Shown: positions 23,584 through 30,857, counted from the stretch's first letter. The stretch is 64,000 nt of DNA from Promethearchaeota archaeon (GCA_048938385.1 JBHLMG010000009.1:6620-70619); one strand, 5' to 3'. Made by a program: numbers and translations. Notes: generated by a model from the sequence alone, not told the origin.

Positions 23584-24090
23584 TCACTCGGAAGCTAATT
23601 CTTCTCTCAGTCTAAGTAAGTGTTGGAATTGCCACTCTCGTTCTTTTGCTACAGCTATGTATGTATCAGATGCGTTTGTGGCTCTATGGATGGCTTGTAA
23701 GGCATAAATTGCAGAACCAATAGAATGAGTTGGAACATGTGCGGTTGCCACTGCTTGACCTGCGGCACGAGCAGCAGAGCGGGCAGCATTATCTCTACCT
23801 ACTTCGCGGGCAGCAGCATGGGAATCAAGTGAAGCCTGGCGAATAACCGCCATCTGAAACACCCCTGTATTGATCCATGTCTTGAGTGTTTCAATGGCTT
23901 TTCGAGGCCGTTGGTCTTCTGGATATTGTTCTTCAAAATATGGTAGAACACGCACAGCACAATCAATTGCCCAGGCTGCCAATGTTTTATGGTTAGTTTT
24001 TTTCACAAGCTCTACAATTCTCTCATCTTTTCGGTAGTGTGTAAGTGAAAATTTTGGTTTCTTTTTTCGTGGTTCAACTTGCACATTCAT
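23584..24090 (-). CDS. Helical-repeat protein resembling the Imm5-type 'putative immunity protein' family
   Basis: LAAWAIDCAVRVLPYFEEQYPEDQRPRKAIETLKTWINTG...AAREVGRDNAARSAARAAGQAVATAHVPTHS matches my recollection of that family's alpha-repeat consensus. This was not verified by search. Confidence 0.4.
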   Translation of the reverse strand: MNVQVEPRKKKPKFSLTHYRKDERIVELVKKTNHKTLAAWAIDCAVRVLPYFEEQYPEDQRPRKAIETLKTWINTGVFQMAVIRQASLDSHAAAREVGRDNAARSAARAAGQAVATAHVPTHSIGSAIYALQAIHRATNASDTYIAVAKEREWQFQHLLRLREELASE

Positions 24091-24114
24091 TCCTCAATAT
24101 ACATTTTTTGTCCA

Positions 24115-25842
24115 TTAGTTTCGCTTGAGGTTGGGATTGTAATTTGTAATATCATGTGACACACTTTGTTTAGGTGATTTTCGGGCAAATCCAATGATGA
24201 CTATTATCAATGGCACAAATAGTAGCGGGACAATAATAATAGCCCAATGATGAGTTGGTAACAAATCCAACGAATCGATCAACCCATCTGCATCCGTGTC
24301 AGGTAATACCGGGTTTGTACCAATCTCGATTTCGTAATCATCCCTCAACCCGTCAGCATCGGTATCGCTGTTCCAAGGATTACAGCCCCAACAGTATTCC
24401 TCGTAGTTCGTCAATCTATCCAAGTCGTAATCGATCCAGCTATCATTTTCAAAAAGATTGAGCCCCCACCGGGACTCCCAACCATCCGGCATCCAGTCCA
24501 GGTCAGTATCAGGGTTTCGTGGGTGGGTAAAAAGGGTGAATTCTTCTGCGTTTGTAAGGGCATCCCCGTCTTCATCTCGTGCGGCGTCCGGTTGAGCTAG
24601 ATTCAACTCGAACATTGACTCCCAGAAAGTAGGTAGTCCGTCATGGTCTGCATCTGAATGATTAAGCATGACAGGAAGCATGGGGTCGCCTAGGCAAGTC
24701 ATGCCGTAGCACCACTGAGGTGAATCGGGCATTTCCGGAGAGGGATAGACGGCTGATTGAAGCCATAATTGTAGTGCAGCTCCAAGCCCCCGCCCTTGGG
24801 CAAGCGTCTGAAAGAAGGTATTAAAATCGTACATACTTCCTGTTTTCGTAGAGCCGATGACCGCTAATGGTCCAGCGGAAGAGAACACATAAGCTCCTGC
24901 CAAATAGTTGGCAAATCGGTAGTCAGCTGCTGAGCAGGCAAAGAGGTTCGCAAAGAGGATGGTACTCTGCAACGCGAAGATATCCTTCGAATACACATAG
25001 TCCCAACCTCCCCAGGCTTGGAAAGCATGCCGTGTGGGATTTGAGTGCGCCCCGACGAGGACAAACTCGTAACTCTGGTTCAGTTCTTGAAGATATGCCG
25101 CAGCAGATGAACCATCGGGTTCACGAATCAGCGTCCCCTCCGGGTATACCAAACTGGCCTGAGTGTACCAAGTGGGGGCTAAGTAAGCCCAGTCGTCATC
25201 AATGAAGGTCAATACGCGTTGTGGGGCTCTTAGTGTTCCTCGCCGATACAACGAATTGCGGTGAAAATAGGATTGAAGCAATTCTGAAGCGTTTCCGAAA
25301 TTATAAAGGGTAGTCGGTGAAAGGCGACCAAGGAAAATTTCTGGCTCAATATTCCCACCATGCCAATCCAGGATTCCGTCGGTATTCAAATCACCAAAGA
25401 TGCCATCAAGGTCCATGAAATACAAATCAATGGGAAACTCTTCAAAACTCGCTCCATCCTGTTGGCGAAATATTGGGGCTGAAAGGTTTCCAATAAGAAG
25501 ACATCCAACCAGCCCGTTTTCATAATGTGTTTGAAGGCGTGAGCGAATGGTATAGGGCGTGGTTGCGTCGGGAATATACTCGATTAGTATCTGGAATCCC
25601 TGATATCCTGCTTCAATAGCAAAGCGTGACATGACCGTCCTGAGATCAGATTCAAATTGTTCTTCGATGATGACCACAACGAGATTTTGTAAAGATTCAA
25701 CAACCGAAGGTCGAGGAACACAGGGGACTGTAGGTGAAGGTGTGTCCACCGATAGTTGAATAATGGAAGCGTGTGAGCAAAGGAGAAGGAGAACGAACAA
25801 TCCACTAACTGGTTTTACTAACACGAAATGCCCGCCCAACAA
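24115..25842 (-). CDS. Secreted clan-CD (gingipain C25-like) cysteine-peptidase-like protein with six thrombospondin-type-3 Ca-binding repeats and a C-terminal TM
   Basis: The candidate His is in FVLVGAHSNP and the candidate Cys in LFACSAADY. The DxDxDG-type repeats are DADHDGL, DEDGDAL, DTDLDWM, DYDLDRL, DTDADGL and DTDADGL. The TM helix is AIIIVPLLFVPLIIVIIGF. Confidence 0.5.
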   Translation of the reverse strand: MLGGHFVLVKPVSGLFVLLLLCSHASIIQLSVDTPSPTVPCVPRPSVVESLQNLVVVIIEEQFESDLRTVMSRFAIEAGYQGFQILIEYIPDATTPYTIRSRLQTHYENGLVGCLLIGNLSAPIFRQQDGASFEEFPIDLYFMDLDGIFGDLNTDGILDWHGGNIEPEIFLGRLSPTTLYNFGNASELLQSYFHRNSLYRRGTLRAPQRVLTFIDDDWAYLAPTWYTQASLVYPEGTLIREPDGSSAAAYLQELNQSYEFVLVGAHSNPTRHAFQAWGGWDYVYSKDIFALQSTILFANLFACSAADYRFANYLAGAYVFSSAGPLAVIGSTKTGSMYDFNTFFQTLAQGRGLGAALQLWLQSAVYPSPEMPDSPQWCYGMTCLGDPMLPVMLNHSDADHDGLPTFWESMFELNLAQPDAARDEDGDALTNAEEFTLFTHPRNPDTDLDWMPDGWESRWGLNLFENDSWIDYDLDRLTNYEEYCWGCNPWNSDTDADGLRDDYEIEIGTNPVLPDTDADGLIDSLDLLPTHHWAIIIVPLLFVPLIIVIIGFARKSPKQSVSHDITNYNPNLKRN

Positions 25843-25975: not shown

Positions 25976-26968
25976 CTATAATTTCTCTCCGCATTCACCG
26001 CAGAATTTACCCGATGCAGGAGCGCCACAATTTGGACAGAATTGCTTGGCTTTCGCTCGTTCATCAACTTGTTTTCGAATCACTTTTCCGCATTCGGAGC
26101 AAAACTTGGGTGGTTTGCCACCTTTTAGGGGCATAGCGGCTCCGCAGTGTGGGCATGCAACATGGGTGACACCGGCTTCTTCAGGTCTTTGGGATTGGCG
26201 CATCATCTCGGCGAGTTGGGGAATGAGGACGATGCCGGCACCGGCCGCGGCTCCTCCTCCGCCGCCTTGACCGAGGGCTTCAGCGCTGCGTCGCATGGTT
26301 TCAGCAGTAAGGACTTCTCGACCGGAGACGCCTTGTACAGCGAAGAAGAGGCGTTCACGGTATTCAGGAGAGGTGTCCATGCCCCCGAAGGCCATGTCAA
26401 GGAGTTTGAGGCCATATTCTTCGAACTTATCAGATAGGCGAGTCTTCGTCTTCATGCTGGTCTCATCAAGACGGGTCATTGCATTTTGAAGTGAATATCC
26501 GGAAAGTTCATCCATCGATAGTTCGACGAACTTTGATCGGATGAAGTTGGTCACATCTTGCGTCGTGTAGTTTTCACCGGCTACAACTTCGTTCACAAAG
26601 ACCTGTGGGTCTTCGATTTCGAACCAGAATTCACCGTGGAACATGAGGGGAGCTAGGTCACGGGTCTGTCCCTTGCCACCGAATTTACCTTGGAACTTGG
26701 TCATATTTATGAAAATCACTTCTGCGTTGAAGGGTGATTTTGGAAAGCCTGCAAGGCGGCGGACAATTCCTGTGAGGATGGGCACATTAGCAGTGGTCAA
26801 CGTGTGACGACCAACACCCAGTACATCTAATGCTTTACCGTCTCGGTAGAAGATTGCGGCTTGATTTTCGCGCACGAGGCACTGACTACCCCATTTCACG
26901 AGGTCATTGGGCCACCGATAGACAAGGTCATCCTTGCGCATCCCTTTCCATTCAATTATCTCTGGCAT
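25976..26968 (-). CDS. SPFH/Band-7 protein of the B. subtilis YdjI type (COG4260-like) with a Gly/Ala linker and C-terminal double zinc ribbon
   Basis: YRWPNDLVKWGSQCLVRENQAAIFYRDGKALDVLGVGRHTLTTANVPIL matches the YdjI-family N-terminus. The C-terminus has CPHCGA...CSECGK...CPNCGA...CGECG. Confidence 0.75.
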   Translation of the reverse strand: MPEIIEWKGMRKDDLVYRWPNDLVKWGSQCLVRENQAAIFYRDGKALDVLGVGRHTLTTANVPILTGIVRRLAGFPKSPFNAEVIFINMTKFQGKFGGKGQTRDLAPLMFHGEFWFEIEDPQVFVNEVVAGENYTTQDVTNFIRSKFVELSMDELSGYSLQNAMTRLDETSMKTKTRLSDKFEEYGLKLLDMAFGGMDTSPEYRERLFFAVQGVSGREVLTAETMRRSAEALGQGGGGGAAAGAGIVLIPQLAEMMRQSQRPEEAGVTHVACPHCGAAMPLKGGKPPKFCSECGKVIRKQVDERAKAKQFCPNCGAPASGKFCGECGEKL

Positions 26969-27224
26969 GATTGGTTCTCCTCCTTCATCTGGAGGGGATA
27001 GAAGGTCTGTGCTGCCATTGGTGCGCAGCCTTTTGAACTTTACGACTTCTCTTCCAATCAGCGCGAAGTTAATGCGAAAAGAACTATTCGAATTATATTC
27101 TGGCGAAAAACGAGGCGGAGATAACGGCTAGAGGGCATTTCTGAAGTTGCCACTAATGGCTCGTTAAAAAGAGAGAAAAAAGGAAAGCCGCCCACTAAAG
27201 GCATCGAGTTGTTTAACCTAGATG

Positions 27225-27779
27225 CTAAACGACCTCAACACCCATAATGACTTGCTGACGTTCCTTCCACTTACGACTCATCGCTGAAACAGCTTTCCGC
27301 AGTTCCTTGATGTGGCCAAGCGCTTCATCTGCGTCCTCTTCAGCCAACCGTAGTATGTCATCACAGCGCTGATCAAATGACTGCACATTTTCTGCAAACC
27401 ATGCGTCAAACTGAAGCATGGTCTCAAGATCCTTCTTGTCAATATGAATCTCATCGAAGTAAGGTCTATAGCCGTACGATGCGTGTTCGATTTCGCTGAT
27501 GAGTTTCTCGGTTCGGCTTGAGACTGAGTCGACAAGCGTGTAGGCTTCTTCGATCTCGTTCTCGACGACTACTGTTCGTATATCCTGGATTTTATCTTGG
27601 CTTTGTCGTAGCCGGTTGACGATTTGGTCTCGGAGAATTCGGTCAGCGTTTCGTCGTTCTTCCTTGATACGGTATCCTCGCCAACCTGGAACAAACTTCA
27701 AGATTTTCTGCATGAGCGTGCGTTCATCATCGACTTTTTCTAAAATTGATGGTTTCTTATCGTCTCCCAACGGGGTCAC
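27225..27779 (-). CDS. Hypothetical all-helical/coiled-coil protein
   Basis: 184 aa, charged, with heptad-like segments (RNADRILRDQIVNRLRQSQDKIQDIR; CDDILRLAEEDADEALGHIKELRKAV). It has no TM and no family I can name. Confidence 0.5.
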   Translation of the reverse strand: MTPLGDDKKPSILEKVDDERTLMQKILKFVPGWRGYRIKEERRNADRILRDQIVNRLRQSQDKIQDIRTVVVENEIEEAYTLVDSVSSRTEKLISEIEHASYGYRPYFDEIHIDKKDLETMLQFDAWFAENVQSFDQRCDDILRLAEEDADEALGHIKELRKAVSAMSRKWKERQQVIMGVEVV

Positions 27780-27912
27780 CTCGTTGGTCCTTAATTAGGC
27801 ATTGGGTTAAGGGCTTATAAACATGCGCCAGATATAGTCGATTCACCAGTTGGGCTATCATCTCCTTGAAGATGTGAAGAATCAGTGTTTGAGCTGGGGC
27901 ATGTTGTTAGGC

Positions 27913-28926
27913 TCAGCGTGCGGCTTCTGCGGCGGTTTTTCTAAACGCAAGATAAATTGTTAGTATTGCCAGGATCAGTGGGATTATAGCTAGACCGAGG
28001 CTTGCATAGAAGAGACTGCCACCAGTTTGATAAGTCGTATACACCAGGTAAATACCAGCGATTCCAAGTAAGAACATAAACGCAGCTCTGATCCAGGTTA
28101 CAGCTTTAAAGCCCGCCGTACGTGGGATCTGAGTGTAAAGCACTCGTCCGTTTGATGCATCGAGAGCCGCTTCGTAAACTTTACCTTTATCACCGACAGT
28201 GAAGCGAATGTGGTAGATGGGGACATGGATGTAGGCGTGGTCGGTGACTTCAAAAGCTTCCCGAGCATCCTCGACCTTCACGGTTTCCCGGTTAATGCGT
28301 GAATAGATCATGTTTCGCGTGGTAGTAATCGCCTGTTGTCGTGCGGTTTCTTCTGACACTTTTGAGAAGAGCACATTTCCGGTATGCTCCTTCACCTGCT
28401 CCAGATTGAAGAACTGACGCGACCGTGTAGCAATCGGGTAATTCGTAATCTCAGCCCGGGCTTCGGGTCCTGCATAGAGTCGAATGTGTCGAGTTTGTTC
28501 TTGATGACCTGATTCAGCAACCCATTCCCAATGAATGCTCGAGTATCGACCACCGGATTGTCCACGAAAACTCGCCTTCCTATCGACACCACGATACGAG
28601 ACATTACCGTGGACGGTGTACACCCAATAAGGATAGAAGGTCATGGACAGGTCTTTCAGGTTAATTAATTGCGCGAGTTCATCAGCAACACCAGGTACTT
28701 TGACTAGATAAGCTTTCAAGGTGTCAAACGCGTCTTTCTCCGTGTAGTTTACGGCTAGCGCAAAATGCTCCTTAAATTGAGAACCCTCTGGAGTGAAACT
28801 CGTACCACAATACGAGCATGTGATAATAGTGTCTGAGGGGTGGACTTCAAGGGTTCCTCCACAATTTGGACAGTGTTTCTTCGTCATTTTTTCTACACCT
28901 TTTTCATGGTTTTTGTGAGATTTCAT
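27913..28926 (-). CDS. Zinc-ribbon + C-terminal 2-TM protein (YdjG-like architecture), paralogue 2
   Basis: CPNCGGTLEVHPSDTIITCSYCG is the zinc ribbon. The central FYPYWVY...IHVPIYHIRF...GKVYEAALDASNGRVL blocks are shared with the upstream paralogue. There are two terminal TM helices. Confidence 0.6.
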   Translation of the reverse strand: MKSHKNHEKGVEKMTKKHCPNCGGTLEVHPSDTIITCSYCGTSFTPEGSQFKEHFALAVNYTEKDAFDTLKAYLVKVPGVADELAQLINLKDLSMTFYPYWVYTVHGNVSYRGVDRKASFRGQSGGRYSSIHWEWVAESGHQEQTRHIRLYAGPEARAEITNYPIATRSRQFFNLEQVKEHTGNVLFSKVSEETARQQAITTTRNMIYSRINRETVKVEDAREAFEVTDHAYIHVPIYHIRFTVGDKGKVYEAALDASNGRVLYTQIPRTAGFKAVTWIRAAFMFLLGIAGIYLVYTTYQTGGSLFYASLGLAIIPLILAILTIYLAFRKTAAEAAR

Positions 28927-29921
28927 TCGCGCTTCATAGAGCTCATTTTGAGTGACTGAGCGGTTGCCACTGCGGCAATTATGAGGCTAATGATGGTCAC
29001 GACAATAGCCAGAATCTCCAATCCCTGTGGAGCAAAAAGTTCTGCAATAAAGTAGCTTCCGATTGTTCCGATCGCTAGGAAAATGAGGCTGACAAAAAAC
29101 ATCACACCACGAAATGTACCTGATATCGGAACTTCGCCTTTGAGAACCTTCTTTGTGTGTCCATCGATCCCGACACGGTAGGTTTCCCCTGCAAATTTGT
29201 AGCGGGCTAGCCAATGGGGCACATGGAGAAGATAGGCGCCTGTTTTTCGAATCTGGCTATGGCAGTCCCAAATCTTGCTTGCCCTTGATTCCGCTCGTTT
29301 TCGATGATCCTCTGCTACGAAGGTTTCAGCAAGTTCGTAAGCATCGGGATCCGTCAACTCGCTGTTCAAAAAGAGGGGCTTTGATTCAACCGCAGTGATT
29401 GCAGTATAATCAAAAGGTTTGATGTTCCCCTTGGTCACAGACAGTGCCTTGTCAAGCTCATCCTGACTGAAGAAAGTAGCTCCTCTACGACACAAGACAT
29501 TGACTGAACGGTTCTCGTTGAAGTCACCGGTAATCGGTTCGTACTCGATTTTTGTACGGCTTCGTCGATTTCCTTGGGAATCCGTGTAATATTCCGTTTC
29601 ACGGTGTTCCTTGTACCCTTCGTAATGGGTGAGTGCATGCATCGTTTCAACCCAGAAGGGGACAAACCGTAACACAGCCTCAGTCACACGAGCCTTACCG
29701 CCTCGTCCCACCCATTCGGCGACCTTTTCTCGAATGTCAGCAGAATTTACGGTTGGTTCCAAGACGAAATGGTTCTCGATCTTCTCACCTTCAACCGTTG
29801 CAGTGAATCCACAGTAATTGCACACAATAACTACATCGTCGGGCGATACGGTGAGAGGAGCATTGCAGGATTGGCACTTTAACGCAGTCATGGTTTCAAT
29901 AGGCTTAGTAGCTTCCACCAA
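28923..29921 (-). CDS. Zinc-ribbon + C-terminal 2-TM protein (YdjG-like architecture), paralogue 1
   Basis: CQSCNAPLTVSPDDVVIVCNYCG is the zinc ribbon. The central blocks are FVPFWVE...LHVPHWLARYKFAGETYRVGIDGHTKKVL. There are two terminal TM helices. Its stop overlaps the next start by 4 nt (ATGA), which suggests translational coupling. Confidence 0.6.
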   Translation of the reverse strand: MVEATKPIETMTALKCQSCNAPLTVSPDDVVIVCNYCGFTATVEGEKIENHFVLEPTVNSADIREKVAEWVGRGGKARVTEAVLRFVPFWVETMHALTHYEGYKEHRETEYYTDSQGNRRSRTKIEYEPITGDFNENRSVNVLCRRGATFFSQDELDKALSVTKGNIKPFDYTAITAVESKPLFLNSELTDPDAYELAETFVAEDHRKRAESRASKIWDCHSQIRKTGAYLLHVPHWLARYKFAGETYRVGIDGHTKKVLKGEVPISGTFRGVMFFVSLIFLAIGTIGSYFIAELFAPQGLEILAIVVTIISLIIAAVATAQSLKMSSMKRE

Positions 29922-30068: not shown

Positions 30069-30857
30069 ATGACAACTATCCGTGATGGCGATCAAGTGCT
30101 TTTTTATTTGGATTCTCGGCGTACATGGCTGCTCCGTGTTGAAGCTGGTAAATCCTTTCATTTGCATCGAGGAATTCTCCTTTTTGATGATGTAATAGGC
30201 CAACAATATGGGAGCCTCATTGCTACCAGCAAAAATGTCTATGTCGCAGCCCTTCCCTCGCTGCCTAGAGATCGCGCAATTAAGTTAGGTCGGAATACAA
30301 ACATCGTATATCCTAAGGATGCTGGATTGATCATTATTTTAGCAGGAATTGGTCCTGGGTCAAAGGTGGTGGAGGCAGGAACAGGAAGTGGCGCCCTAGC
30401 ATCGCTGTTAGGTTATCATGTTTCACCGAATGGACAGGTGTCTTCTTATGAAATCCGTGAAGATTTTGCCTTCACAGCCAAAAAAAACCTAGAAAAAGCT
30501 GGTTTAGCAGAACTCGTTAGCGTCAAACATCAAGATGTCCTTGAAGGGATTGACGAACAGGATGTTGATGCTGTGGTCTTGGACTTGGCAGTTCCCTGGG
30601 AAGTAGTTGATCATGCCTACCAGGCGTTGCGTGGTGGGGGTGTTCTCGTATCCTTTTCGCCAACGATTGAGCAAACCCAACGAACAGTCGAAGCGTTGTA
30701 TTCCTCGCATTTTATCGAGATTGAAACCCGAGAACTCCTTGAACGACAAATTCTTGTACGCACTGGTAAGACTCGACCCGCTACTCGCATGATAGGGCAT
30801 ACTGGGTATGTAACCTCAGCTCGAAAAGTCTATCCACCCAAAACTAAACAAGCTTGA
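30069..30857 (+). CDS. trmI: tRNA (adenine-N1)-methyltransferase, TrmI/Gcd14 family
   Basis: An N-terminal beta domain (GDQVLFYLDSRRTWLLRV...HLHRGILLFDDVIG) is followed by IVYPKDAGLII and a VVEAGTGSGALA SAM motif. Confidence 0.8.
   Translation: MTTIRDGDQVLFYLDSRRTWLLRVEAGKSFHLHRGILLFDDVIGQQYGSLIATSKNVYVAALPSLPRDRAIKLGRNTNIVYPKDAGLIIILAGIGPGSKVVEAGTGSGALASLLGYHVSPNGQVSSYEIREDFAFTAKKNLEKAGLAELVSVKHQDVLEGIDEQDVDAVVLDLAVPWEVVDHAYQALRGGGVLVSFSPTIEQTQRTVEALYSSHFIEIETRELLERQILVRTGKTRPATRMIGHTGYVTSARKVYPPKTKQA

Follow-up and report, generated by a model that had tools for sequence, protein, structure and literature searches.

A probable PspA-free archaeal version of the YdjG/YdjI SPFH complex and its link to an unnamed family of helical proteins

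A locus of four genes in an Asgard archaeon is probably a version of YdjG/YdjI (SamG/SamI), the membrane-associated SPFH complex of the Bacillus membrane-stress response, that does without both PspA and YdjH. It lies on the minus strand at positions 25,976 to 29,921 of a 64,000-nucleotide stretch (the window, contig C36; GCA_048938385.1 JBHLMG010000009.1:6620-70619) and encodes, in the order of transcription, two paralogous zinc-ribbon membrane proteins (A and B), a 184-residue helical protein (H184) and an SPFH protein. The tightest conserved link across genomes is that of the H184 gene followed by the SPFH gene rather than that of all four genes together, and H184, as judged from sequence profiles and structure models, is not a PspA/ESCRT-III protein. 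The YdjG and YdjI parts were already known from Bacillus; the H184 family and its association with SPFH proteins in archaea and bacteria appear to be new. The source genome (2.48 Mb, ~90% complete) was taken as that of an Asgard archaeon, with the class left unassigned, and close homologues of the window proteins occur in metagenome-assembled genomes labelled Promethearchaeota, Hermodarchaeia, Thorarchaeota, and Odinarchaeota.

YdjG and YdjI homologues in the archaeal locus

A first-pass annotation, made from the window alone, had proposed that four co-oriented genes form a membrane module parallel to ydjGHI of Bacillus, and open reading frames (ORFs) for all four were found on the minus strand where it had placed them. 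The B. subtilis sigma-W operon pspA-ydjGHI has been renamed pspA-samGHI (PMC8581546, PMC11237479, PMC13713150), and in this bacterium YdjG and YdjH serve as the membrane anchor of YdjI, itself a soluble protein (PMC8581546, PMC13713150). As a reference we used a B. subtilis-type pspA-ydjGHI locus found in metagenome contigs via a published ydjG primer (PMC8581546), whose products match the Pfam models PspA_IM30 (PspA), a TFIIB-type zinc ribbon (YdjG), TPM (YdjH), and Band_7_1 together with a zinc ribbon (YdjI).

Proteins A and B are similar over their full length (23% identity, E 6e-24). Each carries a single N-terminal CxxC...CxxC ribbon of the C4 type and two hydrophobic C-terminal segments, a predicted transmembrane (TM) hairpin, and the PxW, HVP, Y, and D motifs of the central domain are invariant among 19 family members, all of which bears out their earlier description as paralogues. 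The suspected resemblance to YdjG was substantiated by profile comparison: a profile of 19 Asgard members aligned with YdjG over 239 columns through the central domain (hhalign probability 96.7%, E 4e-10), and BLASTP aligned paralogue A with B. subtilis-type YdjG (E 6e-8) over ~300 residues that stretch from the second ribbon as far as the membrane anchor. The Pfam PepSY model (YpeB domain) was matched weakly by 14 of the 19 members (best E 8e-4), in agreement with the published description of the YdjG central domain as YpeB-related with an NTF2-like fold (PMC11237479). The two arrangements differ in that YdjG of Bacillus has two zinc ribbons and one TM segment whereas A and B have one ribbon and two TM segments each, the single ribbon aligning to the second ribbon of YdjG.

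Pfam identifies a Band_7_1 domain in the SPFH protein (85.1 bits, cut-off 24; E 6.7e-24), and the protein aligns with YdjI end to end (BLASTP E 2e-18), as the first reading of the sequence had it. Unlike A and B, with two TM segments each, it has none. A Gly/Ala low-complexity GGGGGAAAGAG linker precedes a C-terminus with eight cysteines, corresponding to two zinc ribbons, and the DZR and Zn_ribbon_3 models were matched below threshold. Linker and double ribbon had been taken for an addition to the YdjI type, which they are not: YdjI of B. subtilis likewise lacks an intrinsic membrane anchor and carries a low-complexity linker as well as a C-terminal zinc finger, an equal layout (PMC8581546). 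Because BLASTP, hhalign, the PepSY matches, and the end-to-end SPFH alignment concur, the assignments of both zinc-ribbon/2-TM proteins as YdjG/SamG homologues and of the SPFH protein as a full-length YdjI/SamI homologue are sound.

The parallel with the Bacillus operon is real in part. Both loci cluster on one strand a YdjG homologue with cytoplasmic ribbon, YpeB/PepSY-related domain, and C-terminal anchor, and a Band_7_1 SPFH protein with linker, zinc ribbon, and no anchor of its own. In contrast to Bacillus, which has pspA and ydjH in the operon and a single ydjG, the archaeal locus has two YdjG-like paralogues, and its genome yielded no PspA_IM30 match above the cut-off (best E 0.056) and no TPM_phosphatase (YdjH/SamH) match at E <= 0.1, at ~90% completeness. 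The additional 184-residue protein of the archaeal locus belongs to an unrelated family, and the NCBIfam model that H184 matches (LIMLP_15305, see below) had no match in a B. subtilis control genome. Two Snf7/ESCRT-III genes are present in the source genome on another contig, and any ESCRT-III-type effector would have to be such a Snf7 protein encoded elsewhere in the genome. We found no paper describing an archaeal module of this kind or the H184 family, consistent with the earlier impression that the module had not been characterized in archaea.

Family and predicted fold of the 184-residue protein

H184 had been described as charged, all-helical, and devoid of TM segments, and this description holds: the protein is acidic (isoelectric point 5.2), no TM segment was predicted, and its predicted structure is all-helical. 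A first AF2 model from 23 close sequences reached a pLDDT of 75, and a second from 51 diverse sequences a pLDDT of 87.2 and a pTM of 0.81. The predicted helices (residues 12-29, 39-73, 79-98, 115-148, and 150-179) pack into a compact bundle in which an N-terminal helix joins four long ones; this N-terminal helix (12-29) has a moderate hydrophobic moment (0.40) and is, on average, not hydrophobic.

H184 falls into a large unnamed family without a Pfam model. Residues 12-178 align with positions 7-173 of the 175-position NCBIfam model NF047596 (LIMLP_15305_fam; E 2.9e-10) at a score of 40.3 bits, far under the equivalog cut-off of 210, and this full-length alignment indicates homology at the superfamily level rather than equivalence. 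The LIMLP_15305 family, founded on a Leptospira hypothetical protein, has no described function, and the sole paper found that carries the locus tag mentions it as the neighbour of a small RNA (PMC7567364). An exhaustive profile search returned 1141 clusters at 50% identity with E <= 1e-3, 490 of them with E <= 1e-10; nearly all of the best 150 listed clusters consist of proteins of 165-190 residues matched over most of their length. A word-indexed search recovered more than 3596 family proteins, among which the 120 listed contained no Pfam domain, and the distant relatives in a cluster look-up were all named 'hypothetical protein'. The family occurs in 118 of 400 Asgard genomes. Its members share the motifs PGxxGY...E.RR.AD(K/R).LR and A.YGY.GFFDA.K(V/I).E..LD, and the invariant polar residues (Y36, R42/R43, D46, R50, D109, K112, E115, D125, and R174) cluster in these two motifs, which are non-helical or lie at helix ends. 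Some members depart from the usual layout. An uncultured Clostridia homologue of 258 residues carries a double zinc ribbon fused to its N-terminus, longer members (e.g., P0143, 339 residues) may be further fusions, and in one Asgard genome the H184 genes are duplicated in tandem.

One explanation for the position of H184 is that it represents an extremely divergent PspA/Vipp1/ESCRT-III protein, recruited by the SPFH protein to remodel or seal the membrane, as the first-pass annotation had considered. H184 is encoded beside YdjG- and YdjI-like genes, as is pspA in B. subtilis, and like PspA, Vipp1, and ESCRT-III proteins it is soluble, acidic, all-helical, and encoded beside membrane-anchoring partners, in a genome that has no PspA. 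However, comparison of the H184 family with PspA by hhalign gave a probability of 0.1%. Pfam searches with H184 itself returned only scattered sub-threshold coiled-coil matches and neither PspA_IM30 nor Snf7, and with 51 diverse members no family recurred and neither model was among the 25 most-matched families. The H184 profile matched nothing significantly among all PDB sequences. PspA, Vipp1, and ESCRT-III proteins are built of a long alpha1-alpha2 hairpin and alpha3-alpha5, whereas the confident H184 model is a compact bundle; when the latter was compared with the PDB by Foldseek, nothing fell below E 0.045, the value of the best match (the IncA four-helix bundle, TM-score 0.42-0.47), and PspA, Vipp1, and ESCRT-III were absent from the top 50. 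In a viral library the best match was an uncharacterized Mimiviridae protein (E 0.018), and alignments with a phage PspA and a Snf7 protein reached TM-scores of just 0.19 and 0.22. Nor did H184 behave as a replacement for PspA: none of the 30 Asgard genomes tested, of which 14 carry H184 and 16 do not, had PspA_IM30 above the cut-off, so that PspA is missing regardless of H184 and the two show no complementary distribution. With no PspA above the cut-off in the source genome or in these 30 genomes, PspA recruitment cannot be the conserved function here. We therefore rejected the divergent PspA/ESCRT-III candidate on the grounds of Pfam, hhalign, the PDB profile search, two AF2 models, and three Foldseek searches, and regard such an origin of H184 as extremely improbable. 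The protein maps instead to the large family without Pfam model described above.

Alternatively, H184 could be a regulator or enzyme that binds a small ligand or metal, for example in a PhoU-like manner, and that the SPFH protein only localizes. The invariant Arg, Asp, and Tyr residues grouped in two motifs would suit an active or binding site, a PhoU sequence in the PDB was matched over 33 residues (E 0.005), and a PhoU-like fold appeared at Foldseek rank 31 (TM-score 0.37). All of these matches are below significance, the Pfam PhoU model was matched by 0 of the 51 diverse members, and conserved surface motifs are just as likely to mark a protein-protein interface. We consider a ligand-binding role very unlikely, and set the specific PhoU-like assignment aside as resting on marginal matches.

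Gene order and the H184-SPFH junction

Gene order was surveyed by a motif scan over one genome per prokaryote species, using a degenerate back-translation of the second H184 motif. The scan gave at least 120 matching stretches, of which the 80 listed all belong to the H184 family and 74 provided testable loci. The 80 listed stretches derive mostly from Chloroflexota (Anaerolineae) and also from Bathyarchaeia, Caldarchaeales, Conexivisphaerales, Acidobacteriota, Planctomycetota, Deltaproteobacteria, Clostridia, and one Hyphomicrobium. A YdjI-type SPFH gene follows H184 on the same strand within 150 nucleotides in 49 of the 74 listed testable loci and at a greater distance in three. The pairing also appears in three Bathyarchaeia-like contig look-ups, where in all four places returned H184 is followed by a Band_7_1/DZR SPFH gene and then by a membrane protein of 113-115 residues, with junctions that overlap or leave 1-2 nucleotides.

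The complete order A-type, B-type, H184, SPFH was found throughout the genus of the window and also in Caldarchaeales and Conexivisphaerales (Thermoproteota), where the two YdjG-like proteins are orthologous to A and B, respectively; the duplication that gave rise to the pair is ancient. Among 14 more distant Asgard genomes with H184, all encode a Band_7_1 protein, the SPFH gene adjoins H184 in five and lies within 5 kb in four more, and YdjG-like genes are present in 11, mostly as a tandem A-type/B-type pair and in some cases 5-25 kb away. The neighbourhoods examined across the genus, Asgard archaea, and Thermoproteota hence agree with the expectation that the module is syntenic in related genomes. 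Overall, the gene-order link between H184 and SPFH is strong, and that to the YdjG-like pair is looser but recurrent.

Other membrane proteins occur at related positions. Some Chloroflexota encode, directly 5' of the H184-SPFH pair, a protein of 171-181 residues with two N-terminal TM segments, a conserved middle segment (DLVxKGLFTGYIxWDEGILYS), and a C-terminal CPNCGG...CPYCG ribbon; in these loci another kind of membrane-anchored zinc-ribbon protein takes the YdjG-like slot. In one Calditenuaceae locus a third YdjG-like gene (417 residues) lies between H184 and SPFH. One copy of the 113-115-residue membrane protein of the Bathyarchaeia-like loci shows weak similarity (E 0.003) to the transmembrane domain of LiaF, which PspA-type (LiaH) systems are known to contain, and this protein could be the anchor in lineages without the YdjG-like pair. 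In an Anaerolineae subgroup (loci L048, L052, L069, L079, L086, L096, L109, L116, and L122), H184 is followed by xanthine-dehydrogenase-like genes, a conserved set that comprises an FAD-binding subunit, a membrane protein of 137-143 residues, and a molybdopterin subunit.

Within the window, a spacer of 256 nucleotides with an oligo-T tract had been noted between H184 and the SPFH gene, together with the suggestion of two transcription units. Both features are present: just past the H184 stop codon a small hairpin (27203-27189) precedes a T-rich tract (~27166-27186), and ~85 nucleotides before the SPFH start (~26969-27054) are conserved within the genus. When the wider stretch was compared among seven congeners, four had a CDF cation-efflux gene at this junction (422-434 residues, Cation_efflux and ZT_dimer domains fused to a NifB/NifX-like Nitro_FeMo-Co domain), one had ~5 kb of other genes, one had an opposite-strand ATP-cone/Mrr gene, and one (L171) had an empty junction like that of the window. 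Given the terminator-like spacer and the unrelated inserted genes, co-transcription of H184 and SPFH is unlikely in this genus, and the observations suggest a separate SPFH transcript, in line with the original suggestion. The CDF gene is missing from the spacer and from the window genome as a whole. The idea that the spacer is a decayed CDF gene was dismissed, since the window gave no tblastn match to the CDF protein of the congeners. A structured RNA was likewise not indicated, as Rfam gave no match at E <= 1 inside the spacer. Scans for bacterial-type promoters and terminators gave counts not above those of shuffled sequences, archaeal promoters being outside the models of these scans. That the CDF fusion occurs next to four proteins rich in zinc ribbons may be coincidental or may not. 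Congener L171 carries, between paralogue B and H184, an opposite-strand IS605 OrfB/TnpB-like gene (OrfB_IS605 and Cas12f1-like TNB domains).

At the upstream end of the locus, paralogue A starts with TTG, preceded by AGGAGGA. A and B had been described as translationally coupled by an ATGA overlap. The genes are indeed adjacent and the overlap exists (28926-28923), but the later ATG at 28887 (M14) is the likelier start of B because of an upstream AGGTG, a 324-residue databank gene call, and the starts of the orthologues; those of the same genus begin MAKKHCPNCGG, 20-30 nucleotides past the upstream stop codon.

Beyond paralogue A the module is flanked by a divergent tRNA methyltransferase gene of the TrmI/GCD14 type and by a gene for a 153-residue protein with several zinc ribbons, and both positions are kept in most same-genus loci sampled. 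On the other side, 3' of the SPFH gene, lie genes for a 575-residue Peptidase_C25-like protein with a TSP3 repeat and for an Imm5-like protein (Pfam E 3.4e-42); these are not kept beside the module in congeners, which have surface-protein paralogues there instead. An anti-phage defence system was considered and rejected, since PADLOC gave no match except the zinc-ribbon-only PDC-S64 (E 1.7e-4). Coordinates of all features are collected in Table 1.

Table 1 Features of the locus, its flanks, and related loci. Coordinates without a prefix refer to the window; prefixed coordinates refer to other loci or genomes.
Feature	Coordinates	Strand	Basis or remark
YdjG/SamG-like paralogue A, 332 residues	28923-29921	-	ORF; BLASTP/hhalign to YdjG; TM and Cys positions
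YdjG/SamG-like paralogue B, 337-residue ORF (324 residues from ATG 28887)	27913-28926	-	ORF; paralogy with A
H184, 184 residues, acidic helical-bundle protein, predicted cytoplasmic	27225-27779	-	ORF; family profile; AF2 model
Spacer between H184 and SPFH genes, 256 nucleotides	26969-27224	-	Sequence; same-genus comparison
YdjI/SamI-type soluble SPFH protein, 330 residues	25976-26968	-	ORF with Pfam Band_7_1; BLASTP to YdjI
TrmI/GCD14-type tRNA methyltransferase	30069-30857	+	
Protein with several zinc ribbons, 153 residues	30910-31371	-	
Peptidase_C25-like protein and Imm5-like protein	23584-25842	-	
CDF fusion gene in congeners	L166:5935-7218, L167:5791-7068, L169:6077-7381, L172:3541-4809	same as module	
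IS605 OrfB/TnpB-like gene in a congener	L171:3601-4782	opposite to module	
Third YdjG-like gene (Calditenuaceae)	L105:3528-4781		
Membrane protein of 113-115 residues, 3' of SPFH	L040:7528-7869, L041:7541-7888, L043:7538-7885		
Chloroflexota zinc-ribbon protein, 171-181 residues	L076:306-821, L098:3886-4431, L102:3190-3711, L117:1921-2448, L044:5054-5569, L071:7099-7614		
H184 homologue fused to double zinc ribbon (uncultured Clostridia)	L120:6200-6976		
Tandem H184 genes (Asgard)	G319:C1:724378-725940		

Proposed role and significance

By analogy with the Bacillus system, A and B may form a heteromeric membrane anchor that would bring the SPFH protein to the membrane's inner face. H184 would then bind the SPFH oligomer as a dedicated client or regulator, and the pair could act as a scaffold that senses or maintains the state of the membrane. 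On this model the H184-SPFH pair would most likely be the conserved core of the system and the YdjG-like pair its anchor, with membrane-state sensing or maintenance as the most likely physiological output.

Several observations weigh against this interpretation. The physiological role is borrowed by analogy from one bacterium. In the window, H184 and SPFH are parted by a spacer with a terminator-like element, a place that unrelated genes occupy in some congeners. No SPFH gene lies next to H184 in 22 of the 74 listed loci, mostly those of the Anaerolineae subgroup. Among the full-length linked SPFH proteins of this sample, which is dominated by bacteria, C-terminal CxxC pairs are kept in only 12 of 40, so that zinc ribbons are not required for the H184-SPFH pairing. 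Finally, among the 14 distant Asgard genomes the YdjG-like pair lies at a distance of over 100 kb or on a separate contig in six and is missing in three. This last pattern raises the alternative of two independent units that merely adjoin, a YdjG-like pair with a function of its own and a separate H184-SPFH pair, to which the 133-nucleotide spacer with a TTTATAA box ahead of H184 and the lack of a YdjG homologue beside most bacterial H184-SPFH pairs from the motif scan would also conform. Chance proximity sits poorly, however, with an equal four-gene order in two archaeal phyla, with genes only 10-25 kb apart in several more Asgard genomes, with the other membrane-anchored zinc-ribbon protein in the upstream slot of some Chloroflexota loci, and with the experimental demonstration that membrane recruitment of YdjI depends on YdjG (PMC8581546). 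We thus regard two independent units as rather unlikely and retain a single anchored SPFH complex as the probable reading.

A broader and quite unlikely proposition is that the H184 family constitutes a new class of membrane-stress effectors or regulators, unrelated to ESCRT-III and PspA and deployed by YdjI-type SPFH scaffolds. Such an ancient two-component system for maintaining the membrane would run parallel to the PspA systems, in bacteria (Chloroflexota among others) as well as in many archaea (Asgard, Bathyarchaeia, and Caldarchaeales).

Membrane maintenance depends centrally on SPFH scaffolds and on the PspA/ESCRT-III machinery. B. subtilis is so far the sole organism in which the YdjI/SamI branch has been investigated, and how that branch works at the molecular level has yet to be settled (PMC13713150). 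Our analysis shows that the YdjG-YdjI partnership reaches Asgard and other archaea, where it occurs without PspA and without YdjH, and that outside Firmicutes no companion of SPFH proteins of this type is more conserved than a large family without a Pfam model or known fold relative. This uncouples the SPFH scaffold from its presumed purpose of recruiting PspA and makes H184 a concrete candidate for the target of YdjI-type SPFH proteins.

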